Positions 49,641 to 60,932 are shown, counted from the stretch's first letter. The stretch is DNA of 64,000 nt from Gemmatimonadales bacterium (GCA_036002045.1 DASYTT010000121.1:95-64094); one strand, 5' to 3'. Program-made: numbers and translations. Notes: generated from the letters alone by a model not told the origin.

Positions 49641-50398
49641 GCCGGCGTTCCTTCCGGAATTCCGGTCAACCACTCGTAGCCTTTGGCCTCGAGCTCGAGG
49701 GCAAGCTCTTTTCCGCCCGATTTCACGATTTGTCCCTCGACGAGCACGTGCACGAAGTCGGGGATGATGAAATTGAGCAACCGCTGGTAGTGGGTCACCA
49801 CAATGGTGGCCCGATCGGGGCGGCGCAGAGCATTGACCCCATCCGCCACGATCCGCAGCGCATCGATATCGAGGCCGGAATCGGTCTCATCGAGGATCGC
49901 CAGCTTCGGCTCGAGCACCGCCATCTGCAGGATCTCATTGCGTTTCTTCTCACCACCCGAGAATCCGCTGTTGACGGCGCGCTGCATGATTTCGGATTCC
50001 CACCCCACCACCTTGAGTTTTTCCTCGAGCAGGTCGAGAAAGTCGATGGGATCGAGCTCTTCCTGGCCGCGCGCCTTGCGGAGCGCATTGTACGCGGCGC
50101 GCAGGAAATAGGCGTTGCTGACACCGGCGATCTCCACGGGATACTGGAAGGCCAGGAACACCCCGGCCTGGGCGCGCTCTTCAGGCTCGAGCTCCAGGAG
50201 GTCCTGGCCCTCGAGCAGTACGCTGCCCGCCGTGACCGTGTAGGCCGGGTGGCCCGCCAGCACCTGAGCAAGCGTGCTCTTGCCCGATCCGTTCGGGCCC
50301 ATGATGGCATGCACTTCCCCAGCCTTCACACTGAGATCAATGCCGCGCAGGATTTCGTTGTCGCCCGCGGAGGCCCGGAGCCCTTTGATTTCCAGCAC
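49637..50398 (-). CDS. sufC: Fe-S cluster assembly ATPase SufC
   Basis: Track ORF 49637..50674 trimmed to GTG 50398 ((V)LEIKGLRA). [33 protein letters not shown]. Confidence 0.95.
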
Positions 50399-51831
50399 TA
50401 GCCCACGCTCCCCTCGAGACTGACACCAAGCAGCTTCTGCGCTTCCACGGCGAACTCCATCGGCAATTCCTTGAATACTTCCTTGCAGAAGCCGTTCACG
50501 ATCATCGAGATGGCGTTCTCGGTATTGAGGCCGCGTTGCTTGCAGTAGAAGATCTGATCCTCGCCGATCTTCGACGTGCTGGCTTCGTGCTCCACCGAGG
50601 CCGATGGGTTCTGCACGTCGATATAGGGAAAGGTATTCGCGCCGCAGCGGTTTCCGATCAGCATCGAGTCGCATTGGGTATAGTTGCGCGCTCCGGAGGC
50701 CTTGGGGAGAACCTTGACCAGGCCGCGATAACTGTTGTTGCCACGCCCCGCGCTGATCCCCTTCGAGACAATGGTGCTCCGGGTGTTACGGCCCATATGG
50801 ATCATCTTGGTGCCGGTATCGGCCTGCTGCCGGCCGTTCACCACCGCCACTGAATAAAACTCGCCGACCGAGTCATCCCCCTGCAGAATTACACTGGGGT
50901 ATTTCCAGGTGATCGCCGAACCGGTTTCCACTTGCGTCCAGGAGATCTTGGCCCCCCGCGAAGCCTTGCCGCGTTTCGTCACGAAGTTATAGATCCCACC
51001 GCGGCCTTCCTCGTCGCCGGCGTACCAATTCTGCACGGTCGAGTACTTGATGGTCGCCCCCTCGAGCGCCACCAGCTCGACCACCGCGGCGTGCAGCTGA
51101 TTCTCATCGCGTTTCGGAGCAGTACAGCCCTCGAGGTAGCTGACGTGAGCACCCTCGTCGGCGATGATCAGCGTGCGTTCAAACTGGCCGGTGTTCTGGG
51201 CATTCATCCGGAAATAGGTCGAGAGGTCCATCGGGCAACGAACCCCCTTCGGGACGTACACGAACGACCCATCGCTGAAGACCGCGGAATTGAGTGCCGC
51301 GAAATAATTGTCGCTCGCGGGAACCACGGAACCCAGGTACTTCTGGACCAGCTCGGGATGCTCCAGAACCGCCTCGGAGAAGGAGCAGAAAATGATGCCC
51401 AGCTCGCCGAGCTGCTTCTTGTAGGAGGTTCCGACCGATACGGAATCGAAAATGGCATCGACCGCAACGCCAGTCAGGATTTTCTGCTCGGTCAGCGGGA
51501 TACCGAGCTTCTGGTAGGTCTCCAGGAGTTTCGGGTCGGCCTCTTCCAGCGAGCCAAGCGGCTTCTGGGTCTTCGGCGCCGAGTAATAGATGATGTTCTG
51601 ATAGTCGATGACCGGATAGGAGACATTGGGCCAATGCGGCTCGCTCATCTTGAGCCAGCCGCGATAGGCCTTGAGCCGCCAATCCAGCATGAACGCGGGC
51701 TCGGCCTTCTTGGTCGAAATGAGGCGGATGATGTCCTCACTCAAACCCTTCGGAACCGAATCGGCCTCGATGTCGGTGACGAAGCCCCACTTGTATTCGC
51801 GATTGACGAGGGACTCGACGGGGCTGCTCAT
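50398..51831 (-). CDS. sufB: Fe-S cluster assembly protein SufB
   Basis: Track ORF with full-length SufB colinearity ([46 protein letters not shown]). Confidence 0.95.
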
Positions 51832-52101: not shown

Positions 52102-52674
52102 ATGACTATTCATCGCATCCGGCTGCTGGGCGACCCTATTCTCCGCGCCCGCTGCGAGTTCATCGCCAAGCCTCGCTCTACAGCGGTTCGAGTCATCGTG
52201 GACGATCTGCGCGAGACGCTGCGGGACTGGCAGTCCCGTTTCGGTAGCGGCCGGGCGATCGCAGCACCCCAGATCGGCGCACCGGTTCGCATTGTCCACG
52301 TCGAGATGGATCAGCCGTGGACTTTGATCAATCCCGAGATCGTGGATATCGGAACTGAAGATTTCTCGGTCTGGGACGATTGCTTCTCCTTCCCGAACCT
52401 GCTGGTAAGGGTTCAACGAGCCCATCACGTAAGAATTCGCTACGAGGACTTGAAGGGAGAGACCCACGAGCTCGAGCTCGAGGGCGACCGCGCGGAGCTG
52501 CTGCAGCACGAAATTGACCACCTCGACGGGGTCTTGGCAGTTGACCGGGCGTACGGAGCAGATCCCTTCTGCTTGCGCGAGGAATGGAACCGTCTCTATA
52601 CGGCCTCCGACCGCTACGGAGAACCCGAGCCACGGAGTGAACAGGTCCCGACACCGCTCTCCGCTCTGCTGTAG
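52102..52674 (+). CDS. def: Peptide deformylase homologue with non-canonical motif 2
   Basis: Track ORF. Motif 1 is GRAIAAPQIG, motif 2 is DDCFSFP (canonical EGCLS) and motif 3 is QHEIDHLDG. Confidence 0.75.
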   Translation: MTIHRIRLLGDPILRARCEFIAKPRSTAVRVIVDDLRETLRDWQSRFGSGRAIAAPQIGAPVRIVHVEMDQPWTLINPEIVDIGTEDFSVWDDCFSFPNLLVRVQRAHHVRIRYEDLKGETHELELEGDRAELLQHEIDHLDGVLAVDRAYGADPFCLREEWNRLYTASDRYGEPEPRSEQVPTPLSALL

Positions 52675-52679
52675 TCCAC

Positions 52680-53357
52680 ATGGGTGAGCTGGTACAATTT
52701 CCTGGCAATGGACATATCGCGGCCGGATACCTCGCGCTCCCGCCTTCCGGAGCGGGTCCCGGAGTGCTGGTGCTGCAGGAATGGTGGGGACTGGTCGATC
52801 ACATCAAGGAGGTGTGCGACCGCTTCGCGCGGGAGGGCTTCGTCGCTCTGGCGCCCGATCTCTACAATGGCGAGGTCACCAAGAGTCCGGATGAGGCGGG
52901 GAAGCTCTTCATGGCGCTGAACATCGCCAAGGCCGGTGCCGATTTGAGCGCGGCCGCCGGGGCGCTGCTGGCTCGCCCGGAGACCAGCTCGAAAAGGGTA
53001 GGAGTGGTGGGATTCTGCATGGGCGGCCAGTTGGCTCTCTACGCCGCCATTGAATACCCCGACCAGATTGGCGCGGCTGTCGACTTCTACGGCGTGCACC
53101 CCAAAGTCCGGATCGATCCGGCCAGGGTCGGCGTACCGGTACTAGCGCACTTCGCGAAGCGCGACAATTCCGTCAAGGAAGCGGACGCCCGGGTGCTGGT
53201 CGACCAGATCAAGACGGCGGGCGGCAGCATCGAAGCGCATTACTACGAGGCGGATCACGCTTTCTTCAACGACACCCGTCCGACGGTCCACGACAAGGCC
53301 TGCGCCGCCCTAGCGTGGCAGCGGACACTGGCCTTCCTGCGGAGGCAGCTCGCCTAG
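52680..53357 (+). CDS. Dienelactone hydrolase family protein
   Basis: Track ORF. GVLVLQEWWGL, nucleophile elbow VGFCMGG, DHAFFND. Confidence 0.85.
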   Translation: MGELVQFPGNGHIAAGYLALPPSGAGPGVLVLQEWWGLVDHIKEVCDRFAREGFVALAPDLYNGEVTKSPDEAGKLFMALNIAKAGADLSAAAGALLARPETSSKRVGVVGFCMGGQLALYAAIEYPDQIGAAVDFYGVHPKVRIDPARVGVPVLAHFAKRDNSVKEADARVLVDQIKTAGGSIEAHYYEADHAFFNDTRPTVHDKACAALAWQRTLAFLRRQLA

Positions 53358-55437: not shown

Positions 55438-55549
55438 AGTTAATCCCGGGCTCCCCTTGCGGAGCGCGGTCCGGCTCCTTAATTCTGTCCCGACGACCTT
55501 AACCTCGCCTGCGGACCGCCCGAACGATCATCCAGGGAGAGCGGATGGC

Positions 55550-55813
55550 ATGACGTACATCATCACTGAGGCATGTATCGGCGTGAAAGACAGAGCGTGC
55601 GTTGACGTCTGTCCCGTCGATTGCATTTACGAAGGGGAAGATCAGCTCTACATTCACCCGGACGAGTGCATTGATTGCGGCGCCTGTGAGCCGGAGTGCC
55701 CTGTAACGGCCATTTTCCCCGAAGAAGACGTTCCGGCCAACCTCGAAAGCTTCATCGCAAAGAACAAAGAAATCTTCAACTCGGATACGCCGCCCGGCAG
55801 GCCTCACAAGTAG
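55550..55813 (+). CDS. Ferredoxin (FdxA-like, 3Fe-4S/4Fe-4S type)
   Basis: Inner ATG of track ORF 55319..55813. [29 protein letters not shown]...[30 protein letters not shown] upstream. Confidence 0.9.
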
Positions 55814-55825
55814 GTGAGACGACCC

Positions 55826-55850
55826 GCGGGACGGGTCTACTACCCGTCCC
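55826..55850 (+). terminator. Hairpin after the ferredoxin gene (convergent gene junction)
   Basis: CGGGACGGGT (55826-55835), loop CTACT, then ACCCGTCCCG (55841-55850). This is a 10-bp perfect stem. Confidence 0.45.
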
Positions 55851-55967
55851 GGGGCCGCACAAAGGGAGAACTGCATGAGGCTTGGCGGTGATGCGATATG
55901 GAGCATCGAATCGGTCCCGCCATTCTATTAGACGCACGAAACCCCCAGGACGTTTCATCCGCCCTTT

Positions 55968-56531
55968 TCAGTCCCGCCCGACCCCCAGCGAATCCGCCAC
56001 CCGGTTGATGTAATTGAACCAGGATGCGATGAGGGTGATCTGCAGGATGCCGCGATCGTCGAAGCCTACCGCACGGAGCTTGGCGTGATCATCGCGTGAG
56101 ATCCGGGTGGCGTCCCGGGTGAGCTGCACGACGTAATCCAGCATCACCCGGTCCTGCTCGTTGATCGGGGCGGATCGGTGATCCTCCCGCAGGGCCTCGA
56201 CCAGCTTCTCGTCCAGGGTGACTCGACGCAGAAACTCTGCGTGCGAAGTAATTCAATAGCGGCACCGATTGGTGACCGATACCACCGTGGTGATCATCTC
56301 ATGTTGCGCCCGCGTCAGCGGGAGATCCGGCGAGAGCAGGGCTCCGAAGGTCGCGAAGGCGTGCTGCAGCGCGGCAGGGATGAGGCTGTGCGAGGCCACG
56401 ATTCCCGAGGTGCCGTCGGTTGTAGGATGCACCGGCTCGGCATACTCGGCCGGATAGAGCGCCCGCTGGGCCTCGATCGCCCGACGAACCGCAGCATCCG
56501 TCTCAGCCGGTACTGTGCGGATCCAGGTCAT
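55968..56531 (-). CDS. AhpD-like / carboxymuconolactone decarboxylase-family peroxidase-related protein with in-frame TGA (candidate selenoprotein, otherwise a pseudogene)
   Basis: Track ORF 56253..56531 ends ...[12 protein letters not shown]. The same frame continues open for 94 codons ([10 protein letters not shown]...[12 protein letters not shown]) to the TGA at 55968-55970. The total of 564 nt is in frame. The active-site pattern NxCxYCxxSH reads NRCRY[TGA]ITSH. Confidence 0.65.
56223..56246 (-). promoter_or_regulatory. SECIS-like stem-loop downstream of the in-frame UGA
   Basis: On the minus strand: UCG(C)ACGCAG-AGUUU-CUGCGUCGA. It has 9 bp with one bulged C and a 5-nt loop containing GU. 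The stem begins 6 nt and the loop 16 nt after the UGA. Confidence 0.5.
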
Positions 56532-57805
56532 TCAGCCCTCCTTGGAAGACCCCGTCGGAAGACCAGGTGGTAGACCGGCCAGCCCAGCCCCACGACTGCA
56601 GTGCCCAGCAGCGCCTGGCTGGGACTGTTGCGAACGAAAAGGAAGAGTAACCAGACGGAAAAGCTCAGGAAGACGATCGGAATGGCCGGCGAAATTTGCC
56701 AGAAGTCCCCGGAATCCGTTCTTGCCGGCAGGCGGAATACCGCCGCGGCCGTGAGAGCCACGAACAAGACGGTGGCAAAGAGGAAGTAGCCCACGATCTG
56801 GTCGAAGCTGCCGAGCGCAACCAGGAGGATGGCCAGCGCGGCCTGGACCAGGATCGCGCCGACGGGAGTCCCGAAGCGCGGATGGAGTGCCCCGGCGGCC
56901 TTGAGGAAGATTCCGTCGCGAGCCATCGCGTAGTACACCCGCGGAGCAGCGATCATGTAGCTGGTCAGGCTGCTCAGCACTCCGATGCAGACAACTGCGG
57001 CGAAGACGGTCCCGCCGATCCGTCCGAACAGCGCCTCGCCGGCCTGGGCCGCGAAGGCCTCTCCCGAGGTGACCCGTTCGAGCGGGACGAGATAGAGGAA
57101 CGCAGTCGTCGTGAGGATATACACCGCCGTGACGATCGTGACGCCCAGAATGAGTGCACGGGGCACCGTGCGCCGCGGATCGCGGGTTTCCCCGGCTACC
57201 TTGCTGGCGTCCCACCAGCCGCCAAACGAAAAGAAGGCGGAGACCAGTCCGATCGCGAGCGCAGCGCCCAGAGGTGCCGACCCTGGCCGCTGGGCCACGA
57301 AGGGGACGAAGTGCGACCAGTCGCCCAGACCGCGCGCAAAGCCCCACAGAATCAGGAAGCCGAGCAGCCCGAGCTTGAGGAAGGTGAGCCAACGGGTAAT
57401 CCCCGCGCCGAGCCGCACGCCGATGATGTTGGCACCCGCAACCAGGACGATGGCCGACATCGCGAGGAGCTTCTGCGCGATCGGAGCGAGCTCAACCATA
57501 TAGGCCGCGTAGCTGGCCACGCCCACCGCGAGCGCGGCCGTCAAGCCGGGATCCAGCACGAAAAGACATTTCCAGCCGTAGAGGAAAGCCAGTCCGCGAC
57601 CCCAGCCCTCCCTGAGATAGACGTAGCCCCCACCCGCCTCGGGAAAGCGTGCCGCCAGGGCGCCGTAGCTGAGGGCGCCCGTGAGCGCCATCACGCCCAT
57701 CGCCAGCCACACCACCAGCAGCCAGAAGGGCGAGCCGAGCGCGCGCGCCATCTGGGCGGGCGTGAGAAAAATCCCGACGCCGATGACCTCGCCAACCACC
57801 AGCAT
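56528..57805 (-). CDS. APC-family amino acid permease (start probably upstream of the annotated ATG)
   Basis: Track ORF. VVGEVIGVGIFLTP, GGGYVYL, 12-TM pattern. The in-frame upstream sequence ELRRQLGLASVT also looks like genuine permease N-terminus. Confidence 0.85.
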   Translation of the reverse strand: MLVVGEVIGVGIFLTPAQMARALGSPFWLLVVWLAMGVMALTGALSYGALAARFPEAGGGYVYLREGWGRGLAFLYGWKCLFVLDPGLTAALAVGVASYAAYMVELAPIAQKLLAMSAIVLVAGANIIGVRLGAGITRWLTFLKLGLLGFLILWGFARGLGDWSHFVPFVAQRPGSAPLGAALAIGLVSAFFSFGGWWDASKVAGETRDPRRTVPRALILGVTIVTAVYILTTTAFLYLVPLERVTSGEAFAAQAGEALFGRIGGTVFAAVVCIGVLSSLTSYMIAAPRVYYAMARDGIFLKAAGALHPRFGTPVGAILVQAALAILLVALGSFDQIVGYFLFATVLFVALTAAAVFRLPARTDSGDFWQISPAIPIVFLSFSVWLLFLFVRNSPSQALLGTAVVGLGWPVYHLVFRRGLPRRAE

Positions 57806-57867: not shown

Positions 57868-59106
57868 CTATCCGACGGTCTGCAGAAATTTCAGAATGGC
57901 CCGGGTGGTTGGAACGGGCTGCTCCACACAGGGCAAATGCCCCGCGCCCGGAATCTCCATCAAACGGGCCCCTGGAATCGCCGTCGCCATGGCCTGTGCG
58001 ATCGGCGGCGGGGTGATCATGTCTTCCGCGCCGACCAGCACGAGCGTGGGGATCCCGGTGAGGGTCTCGAGCAGTGCCGTGCTGTCGGGCCGCTCGCGCA
58101 TCGCGGAAAGCGCCCCCACGATGCCGGAGACCGGCGTTCGCAGGATCATGGTGCGGATCCGCTCGATGATCTCCGGCGAGACCTGCGGCGTGAAGAAACG
58201 CGGAAGCATCGCTTCCGCCGCAGCCAGGGCCCCCTGTTCGCGCACCCGCCCGATCAGCGCATCGCGGGCGCGGCGTCCTTCGGCGCTATCGGCCTCGGCG
58301 CGCGTGTCCATGAGGATCAGTCCGCGGACACGTTCCCGCCAGCGCCGCAACAGCTCGAACGCGACGTAGCCACCCAGGGAAAGGCCGCACAGCACCACCT
58401 GGCCCTCGCCGATCACGTCGAGAATTCCCACCAGATCTTCGGCATAGGTGCTCATCGAATAGCCGAGGTCGGGTGCGTCGGATTGCCCCATGCCCCGGAG
58501 ATCGGGAGCGATCCGGCGGTATCCGGTCAGGCTGTCGAGCTGATGCTGCCAGACCGTGCGATCGAGGGGAAAACCGTGCACGAAGAGTATGGCGGGTCCC
58601 GTGCCGCGCTGCTCCACGGCGAGCCGCACGCCGTTGACCGAGAGCCGATCCGCGGGCTCGGAGCTCGGCCGCGCCTGAAAGTGCTCGCCCACTTCCTCGG
58701 GCACCGGAACCGGCCGGCCTTCCCGGTTGATGCAGACGAACACGAACTCGGCGGTGGCGACGAGTGCGCCGTCACTGGCTCGGCGCGCAGTCTGCCGCAT
58801 GGTGAAGCTGGTGCGCCCGTGGTGGACCAGGGCCTGATGCACGCGAAGAACATCGCCGGGAAAGGCGGGGGCCAGATAATCGATCACCGTCTTTCGCACC
58901 GCGGGCCAGGCATCATGACGCACGAAAACGTCCATCCCCGGCCCGCGACCCAGCACATCCCAGCGCGCCCTCTCGAACACCCGCAGGAATGCGGCCTGAT
59001 TGAGGTGGCCGAACGCGTCGCAATCGTCGGGATAAACGACTTGTTCGACCTCAGCGAGGCTCATTGGGCGGCTCCGGAGGAGGCCGAAAAGTACGCCGGG
59101 TCGCAC
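57868..59106 (-). CDS. Fusion protein: hotdog-fold acyl-CoA thioesterase (YbgC/4HBT-like) + alpha/beta hydrolase
   Basis: Track ORF (ATG 59064 also possible). N-domain VYPDDCDAFGHLNQAAFLRVFE...GRTSFTM. C-domain ILFVHGFPLD...GLSLGGYVAFE...GAGHLP. Confidence 0.8.
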   Translation of the reverse strand: MRPGVLFGLLRSRPMSLAEVEQVVYPDDCDAFGHLNQAAFLRVFERARWDVLGRGPGMDVFVRHDAWPAVRKTVIDYLAPAFPGDVLRVHQALVHHGRTSFTMRQTARRASDGALVATAEFVFVCINREGRPVPVPEEVGEHFQARPSSEPADRLSVNGVRLAVEQRGTGPAILFVHGFPLDRTVWQHQLDSLTGYRRIAPDLRGMGQSDAPDLGYSMSTYAEDLVGILDVIGEGQVVLCGLSLGGYVAFELLRRWRERVRGLILMDTRAEADSAEGRRARDALIGRVREQGALAAAEAMLPRFFTPQVSPEIIERIRTMILRTPVSGIVGALSAMRERPDSTALLETLTGIPTLVLVGAEDMITPPPIAQAMATAIPGARLMEIPGAGHLPCVEQPVPTTRAILKFLQTVG

Positions 59107-59138
59107 CGGGCTCGCTACTATTCGAAGTCTCCATCCGC

Positions 59139-60275
59139 GTGGTGCACTGCGTCGTGCTGCAACTGATCGAGGAGCCGGACGCTTTCACCGAGTTGCTCGA
59201 TCGCCTGCGGGTCGAGTTGCTGATTGCGGTGGATACCGAAGCGGCCAGCTTCCATCGCCACCGGGACCGGGTCTATCTCCTGCAGCTCTCCAGCCGGACG
59301 GAGACCTGGCTGGTGGACCCACTCGCCGTCAGCGGACTCCCGGGATTCGGCGCACTGCTGGCAGATCCGGGGATCGAGTTCATCTTTCACGATGCCGATT
59401 ACGACCTGCGGCTGCTGGGCCACGAGTTTGGCTTTCGCGCCGCGCGGCTCTTCGATACCCGAGTCGCAGCCCAGTTCCTCAACGAGCCGGGCATCGGACT
59501 GGCGGCGCTCCTGGAGAAGTATTTCGGCGTCCGCCTCGACAAGCAGTTTCAACGGGCCGATTGGTCGCTCCGACCGCTGACGCAGCCAATGCTCCGCTAC
59601 GCTGCTACGGATACCCAGCATCTGCCCGCGCTACGCGACCTGCTGCGGCAGCGCTTGCTCGATTGCGGACGCTTGAGCTGGGTCGAGGAAGAGTGCGAGC
59701 TGCTCACCCTGGTGCGTTGGCCGGAGCCGGAGGCCCCCGAAACCCAAGCCCTGAGCGTGAAAGGGGCGCGCGCGCTCACGCCGAGAGCGCTGGCGATCTT
59801 CCGGGAACTCTACGTCTGGAGAGCAGCGACCGCAGAGGCGCTGGACCGCGCCGCCTTCCGGATCCTGGGCAACGAGGCGATGTTCGCTCTTGCCGAGCAC
59901 CCACCCCGAGACCTTGCACGTCTCGCCCAGATCCGTGGAATCGGCCGGGACACGGTGGAGCGCCGCGGCCGAGAGATTCTGGAAGCCGTTCGGCGCGGAC
60001 TGGGAATTCCCGAGGCCGAACTTCCACGCTATGCTCGTCCGCCCCGGTACCGTCCGGATCCCGCCTTTGAACGCAGATTGGAGCAACTCAAAAGCCTACG
60101 GACAGAGCTCGCCACCAAGTTCGAGCTGGCTCCCGGAGTACTCTGTCCAAACTGGCTCCTGGAAGCGATCGCCCGTGCCGCCCCTAAAGATTTGGAAGCG
60201 CTCGCGCAGGTCGCAGGCATTCGGCACTGGCAACTCCATGAACTCGGTAATGAGTTGCTTCAGCAACTACGCTAG
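59139..60275 (+). CDS. rnd: Ribonuclease D
   Basis: Track ORF 59064..60275 trimmed to the first in-frame GTG (59139; 59142 or 59154 also possible). DEDD exonuclease blocks IAVDTEAAS, FHDADYDL and YAATDTQHL, plus an HRDC-like C-terminus. Confidence 0.85.
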   Translation: MVHCVVLQLIEEPDAFTELLDRLRVELLIAVDTEAASFHRHRDRVYLLQLSSRTETWLVDPLAVSGLPGFGALLADPGIEFIFHDADYDLRLLGHEFGFRAARLFDTRVAAQFLNEPGIGLAALLEKYFGVRLDKQFQRADWSLRPLTQPMLRYAATDTQHLPALRDLLRQRLLDCGRLSWVEEECELLTLVRWPEPEAPETQALSVKGARALTPRALAIFRELYVWRAATAEALDRAAFRILGNEAMFALAEHPPRDLARLAQIRGIGRDTVERRGREILEAVRRGLGIPEAELPRYARPPRYRPDPAFERRLEQLKSLRTELATKFELAPGVLCPNWLLEAIARAAPKDLEALAQVAGIRHWQLHELGNELLQQLR

Positions 60276-60398
60276 AATTGTCTTTCCTGGAGCCGAACCT
60301 AAGCCGAGCCCGCGGGCAAACCCAACCAGTTTGAGCTTCTCCGCGTCATACGTGATGCAGTGGCAGGCCACTCCGCATGCGGCCGCAAGGAACGGTGT

Positions 60399-60932
60399 GT
60401 GGACGATTCCGAGCTGATCGCCGGTGCTCGTGCCGGAGACCGGATGGCAGCGCGCCGCCTCTACGATCGGCATGCCCCGCGCGTGTATCGACTGATTTAT
60501 CGGTCGGTTGGCGATGAGGAGCTCGCCCGCGAGTACACGCAGGACACCTTCGTGAAGGTGTTTCAGCGACTGGAGCAATATCGCGGCGAGTCCGCCTTTT
60601 CGACCTGGTTGCACTCGGTGGCGATGTCGATGCTGTTCACGGGGCTGCGGCGATTGCGACGGGTGCGGGCGCGGGAGTTCGAGCTGGCGGCGGCCGAGAG
60701 CGTGGCGAGCGGAGAAAGTCAGGGTGATCCGCATCTGCGGGATCGCCTGCAGAGTGAGCTGGAGCGGCTTCCGCCGAGGCTTCGCATGCCGGTGGTGCTG
60801 CACGACATGGAAGGATTCACCCATCGGGAGATCAGCCAGATGCTGGACATCCCGGAGGGGACCAGCAAAGCCCGCTTGGCGGAGGCACGGGCCCGGTTGC
60901 GCGAAGCGCTCGCGGGAATCGTGGCCGAGTAG
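60399..60932 (+). CDS. ECF-type RNA polymerase sigma-70 factor
   Basis: Track ORF 60360..60932 trimmed to GTG 60399 (AAGGAA RBS upstream). Region 2 is LYDRHAPRVYRLIYRSVG...QDTFVKVF. Region 4 is VVLHDMEGFTHREISQMLDIPEGTSKARL. Confidence 0.85.
   Translation: MDDSELIAGARAGDRMAARRLYDRHAPRVYRLIYRSVGDEELAREYTQDTFVKVFQRLEQYRGESAFSTWLHSVAMSMLFTGLRRLRRVRAREFELAAAESVASGESQGDPHLRDRLQSELERLPPRLRMPVVLHDMEGFTHREISQMLDIPEGTSKARLAEARARLREALAGIVAE

Follow-up and report, generated by a model that had tools for sequence, protein, structure and literature searches.

The window analysed here is a 64,000-nucleotide stretch of DNA from a Gemmatimonadales bacterium (GCA_036002045.1, DASYTT010000121.1:95-64094). Its minus strand carries a reading frame that is interrupted by a TGA codon and continues in the same frame (Table 1): 92 sense codons lie between the ATG and the in-frame TGA, and another 94, ending in the C-terminus GVGRD, lie beyond it. 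A first-pass annotation, made from the sequence alone, had described this open reading frame with its in-frame TGA, the 94-codon read-through and the stop at 55970-55968, and re-reading the sequence returned the same coordinates. Gene callers split the gene into fragments of 92 and 58 aa. A scan of the window for TGA codons joining two coding-like segments found no other in-frame TGA with a redox motif.

The gene immediately upstream encodes an amino-acid permease, the stop codon of which (TGA) overlaps the start codon of the interrupted gene (ATG) as ATGA. The interrupted gene closes a transcription unit that it shares with the permease gene, and the layout makes co-transcription and translational coupling probable. 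A short 4Fe-4S ferredoxin gene is convergent to the unit and is followed by a gene for a patatin-like phospholipase. A 135-aa open reading frame at 55499-55906 on the minus strand was rejected as a gene; it has no family match, overlaps the plus-strand ferredoxin gene and is probably spurious.

Table 1. The putative selenoprotein gene, its parts and neighbouring genes, in coordinates of the 64-kb window
Feature	Position	Strand	Remarks
Putative AhpD-like (TIGR01926) selenoprotein gene, complete	55968..56531	minus	187 residues including Sec93, plus stop codon
Shine-Dalgarno AAGGAGG	56537..56543	minus	5 nt upstream of ATG; read directly from sequence
Start ATG	56531-56529	minus	read from sequence
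In-frame UGA, inferred Sec93, at second catalytic Cys position (CxxU)	56253..56255	minus	homologue alignment
Near-invariant 20-nt core CACGCAGAGTTTCTGCGTCG	56243-56224	minus	near-invariant nucleotides; also encodes H97-A-E-F-L-R-R
Hairpin of bSECIS type	56226..56242	minus	fold of -8.2 kcal/mol, RNAalifold consensus, published model
Hairpin, 5' stem ACGCAG	56242-56237	minus	
Hairpin, loop AGUUU	56236-56232	minus	
Hairpin, 3' stem CUGCGU	56231-56226	minus	
Terminal stop TGA	55970-55968	minus	read from sequence
Amino-acid permease, immediately upstream	56528..57805	minus	AA_permease_2 at 2.3e-48
4HBT thioesterase / alpha-beta hydrolase fusion, upstream of permease	57868-59106	minus	
RNase D-like 3'-5' exonuclease with HRDC domain	59064-60275	plus	
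ECF sigma factor	60360-60932	plus	
4Fe-4S ferredoxin, 87 aa, convergent to the selenoprotein gene	55550-55813	plus	Pfam Fer4, 1.9e-11
Dienelactone hydrolase	52680-53357	plus	
Peptide deformylase	52102-52674	plus	
SufB/D	50398-51831	minus	

For protein-level scoring of the read-through product, the TGA was entered as Cys. The product matches the TIGR01926 model ("peroxidase-related enzyme") with 117.5 bits against a cutoff of 81.8, in an alignment that covers residues 41-184 and profile positions 29-173 of 178, and it also matches the Pfam CMD domain. Among structures, PDB 2pfx is matched at 5e-22 over residues 58-181, that is, across the TGA, and in 2pfx, 2oyo, 3c1l and 6k40, which are peroxidase-related proteins or AhpD, a Cys stands opposite the UGA in every case. 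With the TIGR01926 cutoff passed and the structural alignments running through the TGA, the proposed placement of the product in the peroxidase-related branch of the AhpD family stands. Two further models scored below their cutoffs, namely NF041238 (AhpD_rel_CFYUT; 54.8 bits, cutoff 175) and NF053654 (GroundWater_YciW (seleno)protein; 34.1 bits, cutoff 310).

The redox motif of the product reads N88-R-C90-R-Y92-[TGA]93-I-T-S96-H97, where homologues have N-x-C-x-Y-C-x-x-S-H. The TGA column aligns with Cys in TIGR01926 homologues, and the stop codon does occupy the place of the second redox Cys, as had been suggested. The AhpD proton relay pattern on its catalytic helix-turn-helix, Glu-x11-Cys-x-(His/Tyr)-Cys-x3-His, is reproduced by E78-C90-Y92-U93-H97, its second Cys being UGA-encoded; E78 and H97 are invariant among homologues, and C90 and Y92 nearly so. 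In most Cys-type relatives (L085-L087, L090, L091, L093-L098, L101), from Solibacteraceae, Vicinamibacterales, Acidimicrobiales and others, Thr replaces the first Cys (N-R-T-x-Y-C), and the sole Cys that is kept is the equivalent of Sec93. These sequences suggest that position 93 is the essential nucleophile.

To place the TGA in its family context, we drew on 163 homologous loci, obtained by two scans of species-representative genomes, an exact-pattern match and two look-ups. The codon at position 93 is TGA in 147 of them (148 with the window), TGC in 15 and TTA in one, and the loci sampled contain about ten selenocysteine (Sec) forms for every Cys form. A recurrence of this order lies far outside what chance would give. 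All but one of the 147 other TGA sequences are loci from species-representative genomes, and the 148 are mutually distinct over the 78 nt compared. By record title, the TGA loci belong mostly to Acidobacteriota (Pyrinomonadaceae, Blastocatellia, Terriglobia, Thermoanaerobaculia, Vicinamibacterales and Acidiferrales) and Gemmatimonadota, with a few from Planctomycetota (Isosphaerales, Pirellulales), Zixiibacteriota, KSB1 and others. Cys occupies the UGA column in the 15 TGC loci, in more distant database homologues and in the PDB relatives, forming a Cys/Sec pair. The pairing with a permease gene recurs in 40 of the 121 TGA loci that have enough upstream flank and in 3 of 13 Cys loci, a recurrence that may point to some functional connection of the AhpD-like enzyme with an amino-acid-like substrate taken up by the cell. 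As a side observation, one MAG, DATEUF01 (Pyrinomonadaceae SMAG_U8334), contains two TGA paralogues on separate contigs (L046 and L060), with the motifs NRCHY[TGA]IESH and NRCVY[TGA]IESH.

Downstream of the UGA, the mRNA can fold into the hairpin listed in Table 1, which begins 10 nt after the UGA and presents its loop 16 nt after it; the GU-containing loop at this distance is present as the first-pass annotation had described it. The published bSECIS model comprises an apical loop of 3-9 nt, a stem of 4-16 bp, a UGA-to-loop distance of 16-37 nt and a minimum free energy (MFE) of -7.5 kcal/mol or lower, with a G among the first two loop bases, typically as N1-G-[G/U]-N-N2 with N1 and N2 paired (PMC13188914). 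The hairpin has 6 bp (7 with an A-U closing pair), the loop AGUUU, a spacing of 16 nt and a fold of -8.2 kcal/mol; in the loop, G stands at position 2 and is followed by U, and N1-N2 is an A-U pair. The resemblance to bacterial SECIS elements noted at first sight thus extends to all four criteria of the published model.

The element had been drawn with a longer stem, of 9 bp with one bulged C. The upper hairpin of 6-7 bp holds, but the lower UCG/CGA pairs do not hold up in the family comparison. They do form in the window, where the full structure as drawn has -10.9 kcal/mol. As a conserved stem they were rejected, their pairing across the 148 sequences being no commoner than column composition predicts, and the lower helix proposed by RNAalifold was set aside on the same grounds.

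The ACGCAG/AGUUU/CUGCGU hairpin is part of the MFE fold in 142 of the 148 TGA sequences. The only substitution inside the helix turns an A-U pair into G-U, in 4 sequences, and the basal A-U pair is mismatched in 7. The stem varies too little for compensatory covariation to be counted, and the structural case rests on synonymous-site conservation, the one G-U-compatible change and the contrast with the Cys form. A 61-nt single-sequence fold of the window returns a competing MFE structure (z = -0.89) and misses the hairpin because window-specific downstream sequence competes for pairing; shorter segments and the alignment fold recover it. Rfam gave no match to the hairpin, either at gathering thresholds or at E-values up to 10.

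Conservation at synonymous sites is concentrated in the core CACGCAGAGTTTCTGCGTCG, which spans +12 to +31 after the T of the TGA and is identical in 120 of the 148 TGA sequences. At the third codon positions +14, +17, +20, +23, +26 and +29, the TGA loci have an entropy of at most 0.3 bit, against about 1-1.8 bit at most flanking third positions. The Cys loci encode nearly the same peptide, H-x-E-F-L-R-R, with TTC rather than TTT and with varied Ala/Thr, Leu and Arg codons, and their entropy is 0.57-1.4 bit at five of the same six third positions. Since loci with nearly the same peptide vary at the core where the codon is one for Cys, nucleotide conservation tracks the TGA and not the peptide. 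The core is absent from 13 of the 15 Cys loci, complete in one and mostly kept in one. The complete copy is found at L114:3001-3561 (Latescibacterota MAG SICM01000011.1), which has TGC at the Sec position; the combination suggests a recent change from Sec to Cys that left a fossil SECIS behind. The other, L089, also has TGC and retains most of the core as CATGCGGAGTTTCTGCGGCG.

Decoding of the UGA as Sec would depend on factors encoded elsewhere. Searches with ARAGORN (the window and all loci) and by tblastn with E. coli SelA, SelB and SelD (the window and the 163 loci) turned up no selA, selB, selD or tRNA-Sec, either in the 64-kb window or in the related loci, which total about 0.9 Mb. SelA is the enzyme specific to Sec synthesis. 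When genomes were scanned with a SelA alignment, the 80 best matches included one Acidobacteriota MAG, and with the SelA of this MAG as seed, more than 100 close relatives were found. Cluster names sampled across SelA diversity added SelA from "Vicinamibacteria bacterium" and "Gemmatimonadota bacterium", and a further search gave six SelA proteins named as Gemmatimonadota. A Sec-synthesis enzyme therefore exists both in the phylum of the window and in the main phylum of the TGA form. Three of the six lie on Gemmatimonadota MAG contigs (L256, JBHHYZ010000015; L257, JBHHZD010000010; L258, JBHHYJ010000026) with a conserved gene order, namely ValRS, a Big_5 / CarboxypepD_reg protein, SelA, PurN, PurH and cytochrome c oxidase. 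Unlike the selAB operon of E. coli, selA stands alone at these loci, with selB not adjacent. Among the SelA-bearing Gemmatimonadota and Acidobacteriota MAGs, none was found to have the TGA gene as well, and the literature yielded nothing usable on a Sec trait in Gemmatimonadetes.

Some room is left for the UGA being decoded as an amino acid other than Sec, whether by near-cognate read-through (Trp, Cys or Arg), by an opal-suppressor or allo-tRNA, or by a SelB-dependent tRNA-Cys of the selC* type, which inserts Cys at a SECIS-linked UGA. We consider decoding of this kind improbable. The UGA occupies a catalytic Cys position with Cys homologues, as is classical for a Cys/Sec pair, the hairpin agrees with the bSECIS model of SelB type, and SelA, dedicated to Sec synthesis, occurs in the same phyla; moreover, keeping a UGA and a hairpin just for Cys in more than 140 species would bring no evident advantage over TGC. 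Allo-tRNAs that are possible nonsense suppressors have been described in Acidobacteria, and selC* tRNA-Cys mimics tRNA-Sec in some anaerobes (PMC5389517), yet the reports of selC* concern Firmicutes, Thermodesulfobacteria, Nitrospirae and Proteobacteria and not the phyla considered here (PMC5389517).

In a single-genome view, a Cys codon mutated to TGA in a gene that is now dead would be hard to tell from a selenoprotein gene, and the 92-aa and 58-aa pieces of the gene callers would suit such a nonsense pseudogene. Against this, the TGA recurs at the same codon in the 147 other distinct sequences from several phyla, and the frame stays open for 93-113 codons past the TGA in all 148, with a frameshift in none. 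For 600 random pairs, pN/pS is 0.17 over the 50 codons before the TGA and 0.23 over codons 12-92 after it, at a pS of about 0.66-0.70, which is near saturation. Relaxed or frameshifted conservation downstream of the TGA in relatives, named at the outset as the mark of a pseudogene, was thus found in neither form. Because a dead gene would not keep its frame and its amino acids over such divergence, the pseudogene reading is rejected, its remaining chance being very slight. The pattern of substitution shows that the codons after the UGA are translated and under purifying selection.

That the TGA is a sequencing or assembly error for TGC or TGT, for which nothing speaks beyond its prior possibility, is less probable still and is likewise rejected. 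The first-pass annotation had advised a check for these codons at 56253-56255. Two further JGI metagenome contigs from the same population, independently assembled and 99.98% and 99.29% identical to the window, both have TGA and no mismatches in the gene, although the latter differs at 53 positions elsewhere over 7.5 kb. In addition, the hairpin sequence accompanies the TGA across the family and is missing from 13 of the 15 TGC forms, a pattern at odds with a base-calling error.

A protein search retrieved many full-length relatives with 70-80% identity, in which the distant ones have Cys at the TGA column and the closest ones W, S or L. For one of these entries, P0001, the DNA (L002, 613-1182) has TGA, and the recorded protein is not obtained under table 11; its W must have been an artefact of a gene caller that used a code with TGA as Trp. 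Trp stands at the catalytic position in many JGI/ENA entries (P0001-P0005, P0023 and similar), with the DNA checked in the one case of P0001 / L002, and these entries would be a systematic database artefact of a code-4 model applied to short contigs. Global reassignment of UGA to a sense codon, of the code 4 or code 25 type, to which W at the Sec position in some close homologues might point, is rejected too, its likelihood being negligible, as those W go back to TGA codons in short contigs to which a metagenome gene caller applied code 4, and TGA is the commonest stop in the window (35 of 64 crude gene calls).

Two other entries deviate at the same position. The locus L003:2319-2885 (ENA contig k141_3915912, protein P0013) has TTA (Leu) at the Sec codon and an intact hairpin, and the database protein P0006 has Ser at the Sec position together with H97N. 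Both represent either sequencing errors or inactivated or neofunctionalised copies.

Taken together, the comparative data make it very probable that the locus holds an intact gene for a Sec-containing AhpD-like thiol/selenol oxidoreductase of the TIGR01926 family. In the mechanism we propose, the hairpin would act as a bacterial SECIS, its apical loop A-G-U-U-U being bound by SelB with Sec-tRNA(Sec) while the ribosome is at the UGA, and Sec would be inserted at UGA93 in competition with RF2. Sec93 would then stand in for the second catalytic Cys in the proton relay of AhpD and may cycle with Cys90 by way of a selenenylsulfide as peroxides or disulfides are reduced, a reaction for which the Sec form is expected to provide a more reactive centre than the Cys form. 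We infer the part of SelB and Sec insertion from the established bacterial Sec pathway, and the Sec93/Cys90 cycle from AhpD chemistry.

What stands out is a SECIS core with almost no nucleotide variation among several phyla, for which horizontal spread or a dual coding constraint may be the cause. A bolder proposal, which we hold to be doubtful, is that of a horizontally mobile selenoprotein-plus-SECIS module, whose single hairpin either suits the divergent SelB proteins found in many soil phyla or has been frozen by the dual constraint of the H-A-E-F-L-R-R peptide and SelB binding. If true, the module would be one of the chief ways in which aerobic soil bacteria use selenium.

For annotation, the practical consequence is a correction: gene callers either truncate the protein to 92 aa and add a spurious 58-aa piece, or place Trp at the UGA. 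Because the protein is cut short at the UGA or the codon read as Trp in this way, soil-metagenome entries for the AhpD-like family are probably wrong at the catalytic residue as a rule. The Gemmatimonadota host is implied to use Sec and should carry selABCD elsewhere in its genome. The locus is further evidence that selenium is widely used in AhpD-like CxxU proteins beyond anaerobes and marine plankton. Present knowledge of Sec decoding and of the function of AhpD-like proteins is not altered by it.

Among known decoding elements, the SECIS of E. coli fdhF and the consensus bSECIS likewise lie inside the coding sequence and carry a G followed by U in a small apical loop, borne by a short stem rich in G+C; the distance from the UGA in the window falls within the bSECISearch range of 16-37 nt, at its lower limit. 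The primary sequence, on the other hand, is unrelated, and a conserved bulged U finds no support in the window family. A further difference is the unusual degree of invariance that the window element shows from phylum to phylum; bSECIS elements are described as otherwise little alike (PMC13188914).

At the protein level, the closest mechanistic parallels are the proton relays of Mycobacterium tuberculosis AhpD, formed by Glu118, Cys130, His132, Cys133 and His137 on two adjacent helices, and of PA0269 from Pseudomonas aeruginosa, formed by Glu36, Cys48, Tyr50, Cys51 and His55 (PMC3141380). Their spacing is identical to that of the window protein, in which Tyr92 corresponds to the middle residue of the PA0269 type; where both have a second Cys, the window protein would have Sec. 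The architecture of M. tuberculosis AhpD differs, the window protein being a TIGR01926-type chain of about 188 residues that scores 19.1 bits against TIGR00777, below the cutoff of 191.95. In contrast to these systems, the window gene has an amino-acid permease as neighbour and no adjacent ahpC. NF041238, the "alkylhydroperoxidase-related (seleno)protein" known from the Sargasso Sea as "hypothetical protein 1", has a related CMD/AhpD domain in which C-x-Y-U occupies the corresponding position, and some relatives of the window gene share its C-F-Y-U; this model is, however, a two-domain one of 357 positions, of which the window protein matches the C-terminal half only, and the protein is therefore not a member.

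The first-pass annotation had noted that AhpD-like selenoproteins were already on record, and CxxU proteins of this kind have indeed been documented in surveys since 2005. AhpD-like (COG2128) CxxU proteins entered the literature as a new selenoprotein family with the 27 sequences of the Sargasso Sea survey (Zhang, Fomenko & Gladyshev 2005, PMC1088965). Complete genomes were shown to contain them in 2006 (PMC1794560), and in the GOS survey they came fourth in abundance, as "AhpD-like 1" with 299 sequences (PMC2398784). A 2026 review lists an "AhpD-like protein, TIGR01926, CxxU" with the representative MCB9421940.1 (PMC13188914), and the family is a browsable class in BSepDB (PMC13326102). The window gene belongs to this family because its product scores above the TIGR01926 cutoff and its Sec occupies the same place in the motif. 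TIGR01926 membership, a CxxU motif in which Sec takes the place of the second Cys, a SECIS-like hairpin directly after the UGA and widespread Cys homologues are common to both, and nothing essential differs, the likeness being judged by family model and motif rather than against the published representative sequence. The family was first described in marine metagenomes, and the copy in the window comes from a soil-type Gemmatimonadota genome. It is an unannotated member of a known selenoprotein family, and as such will not surprise the specialist.
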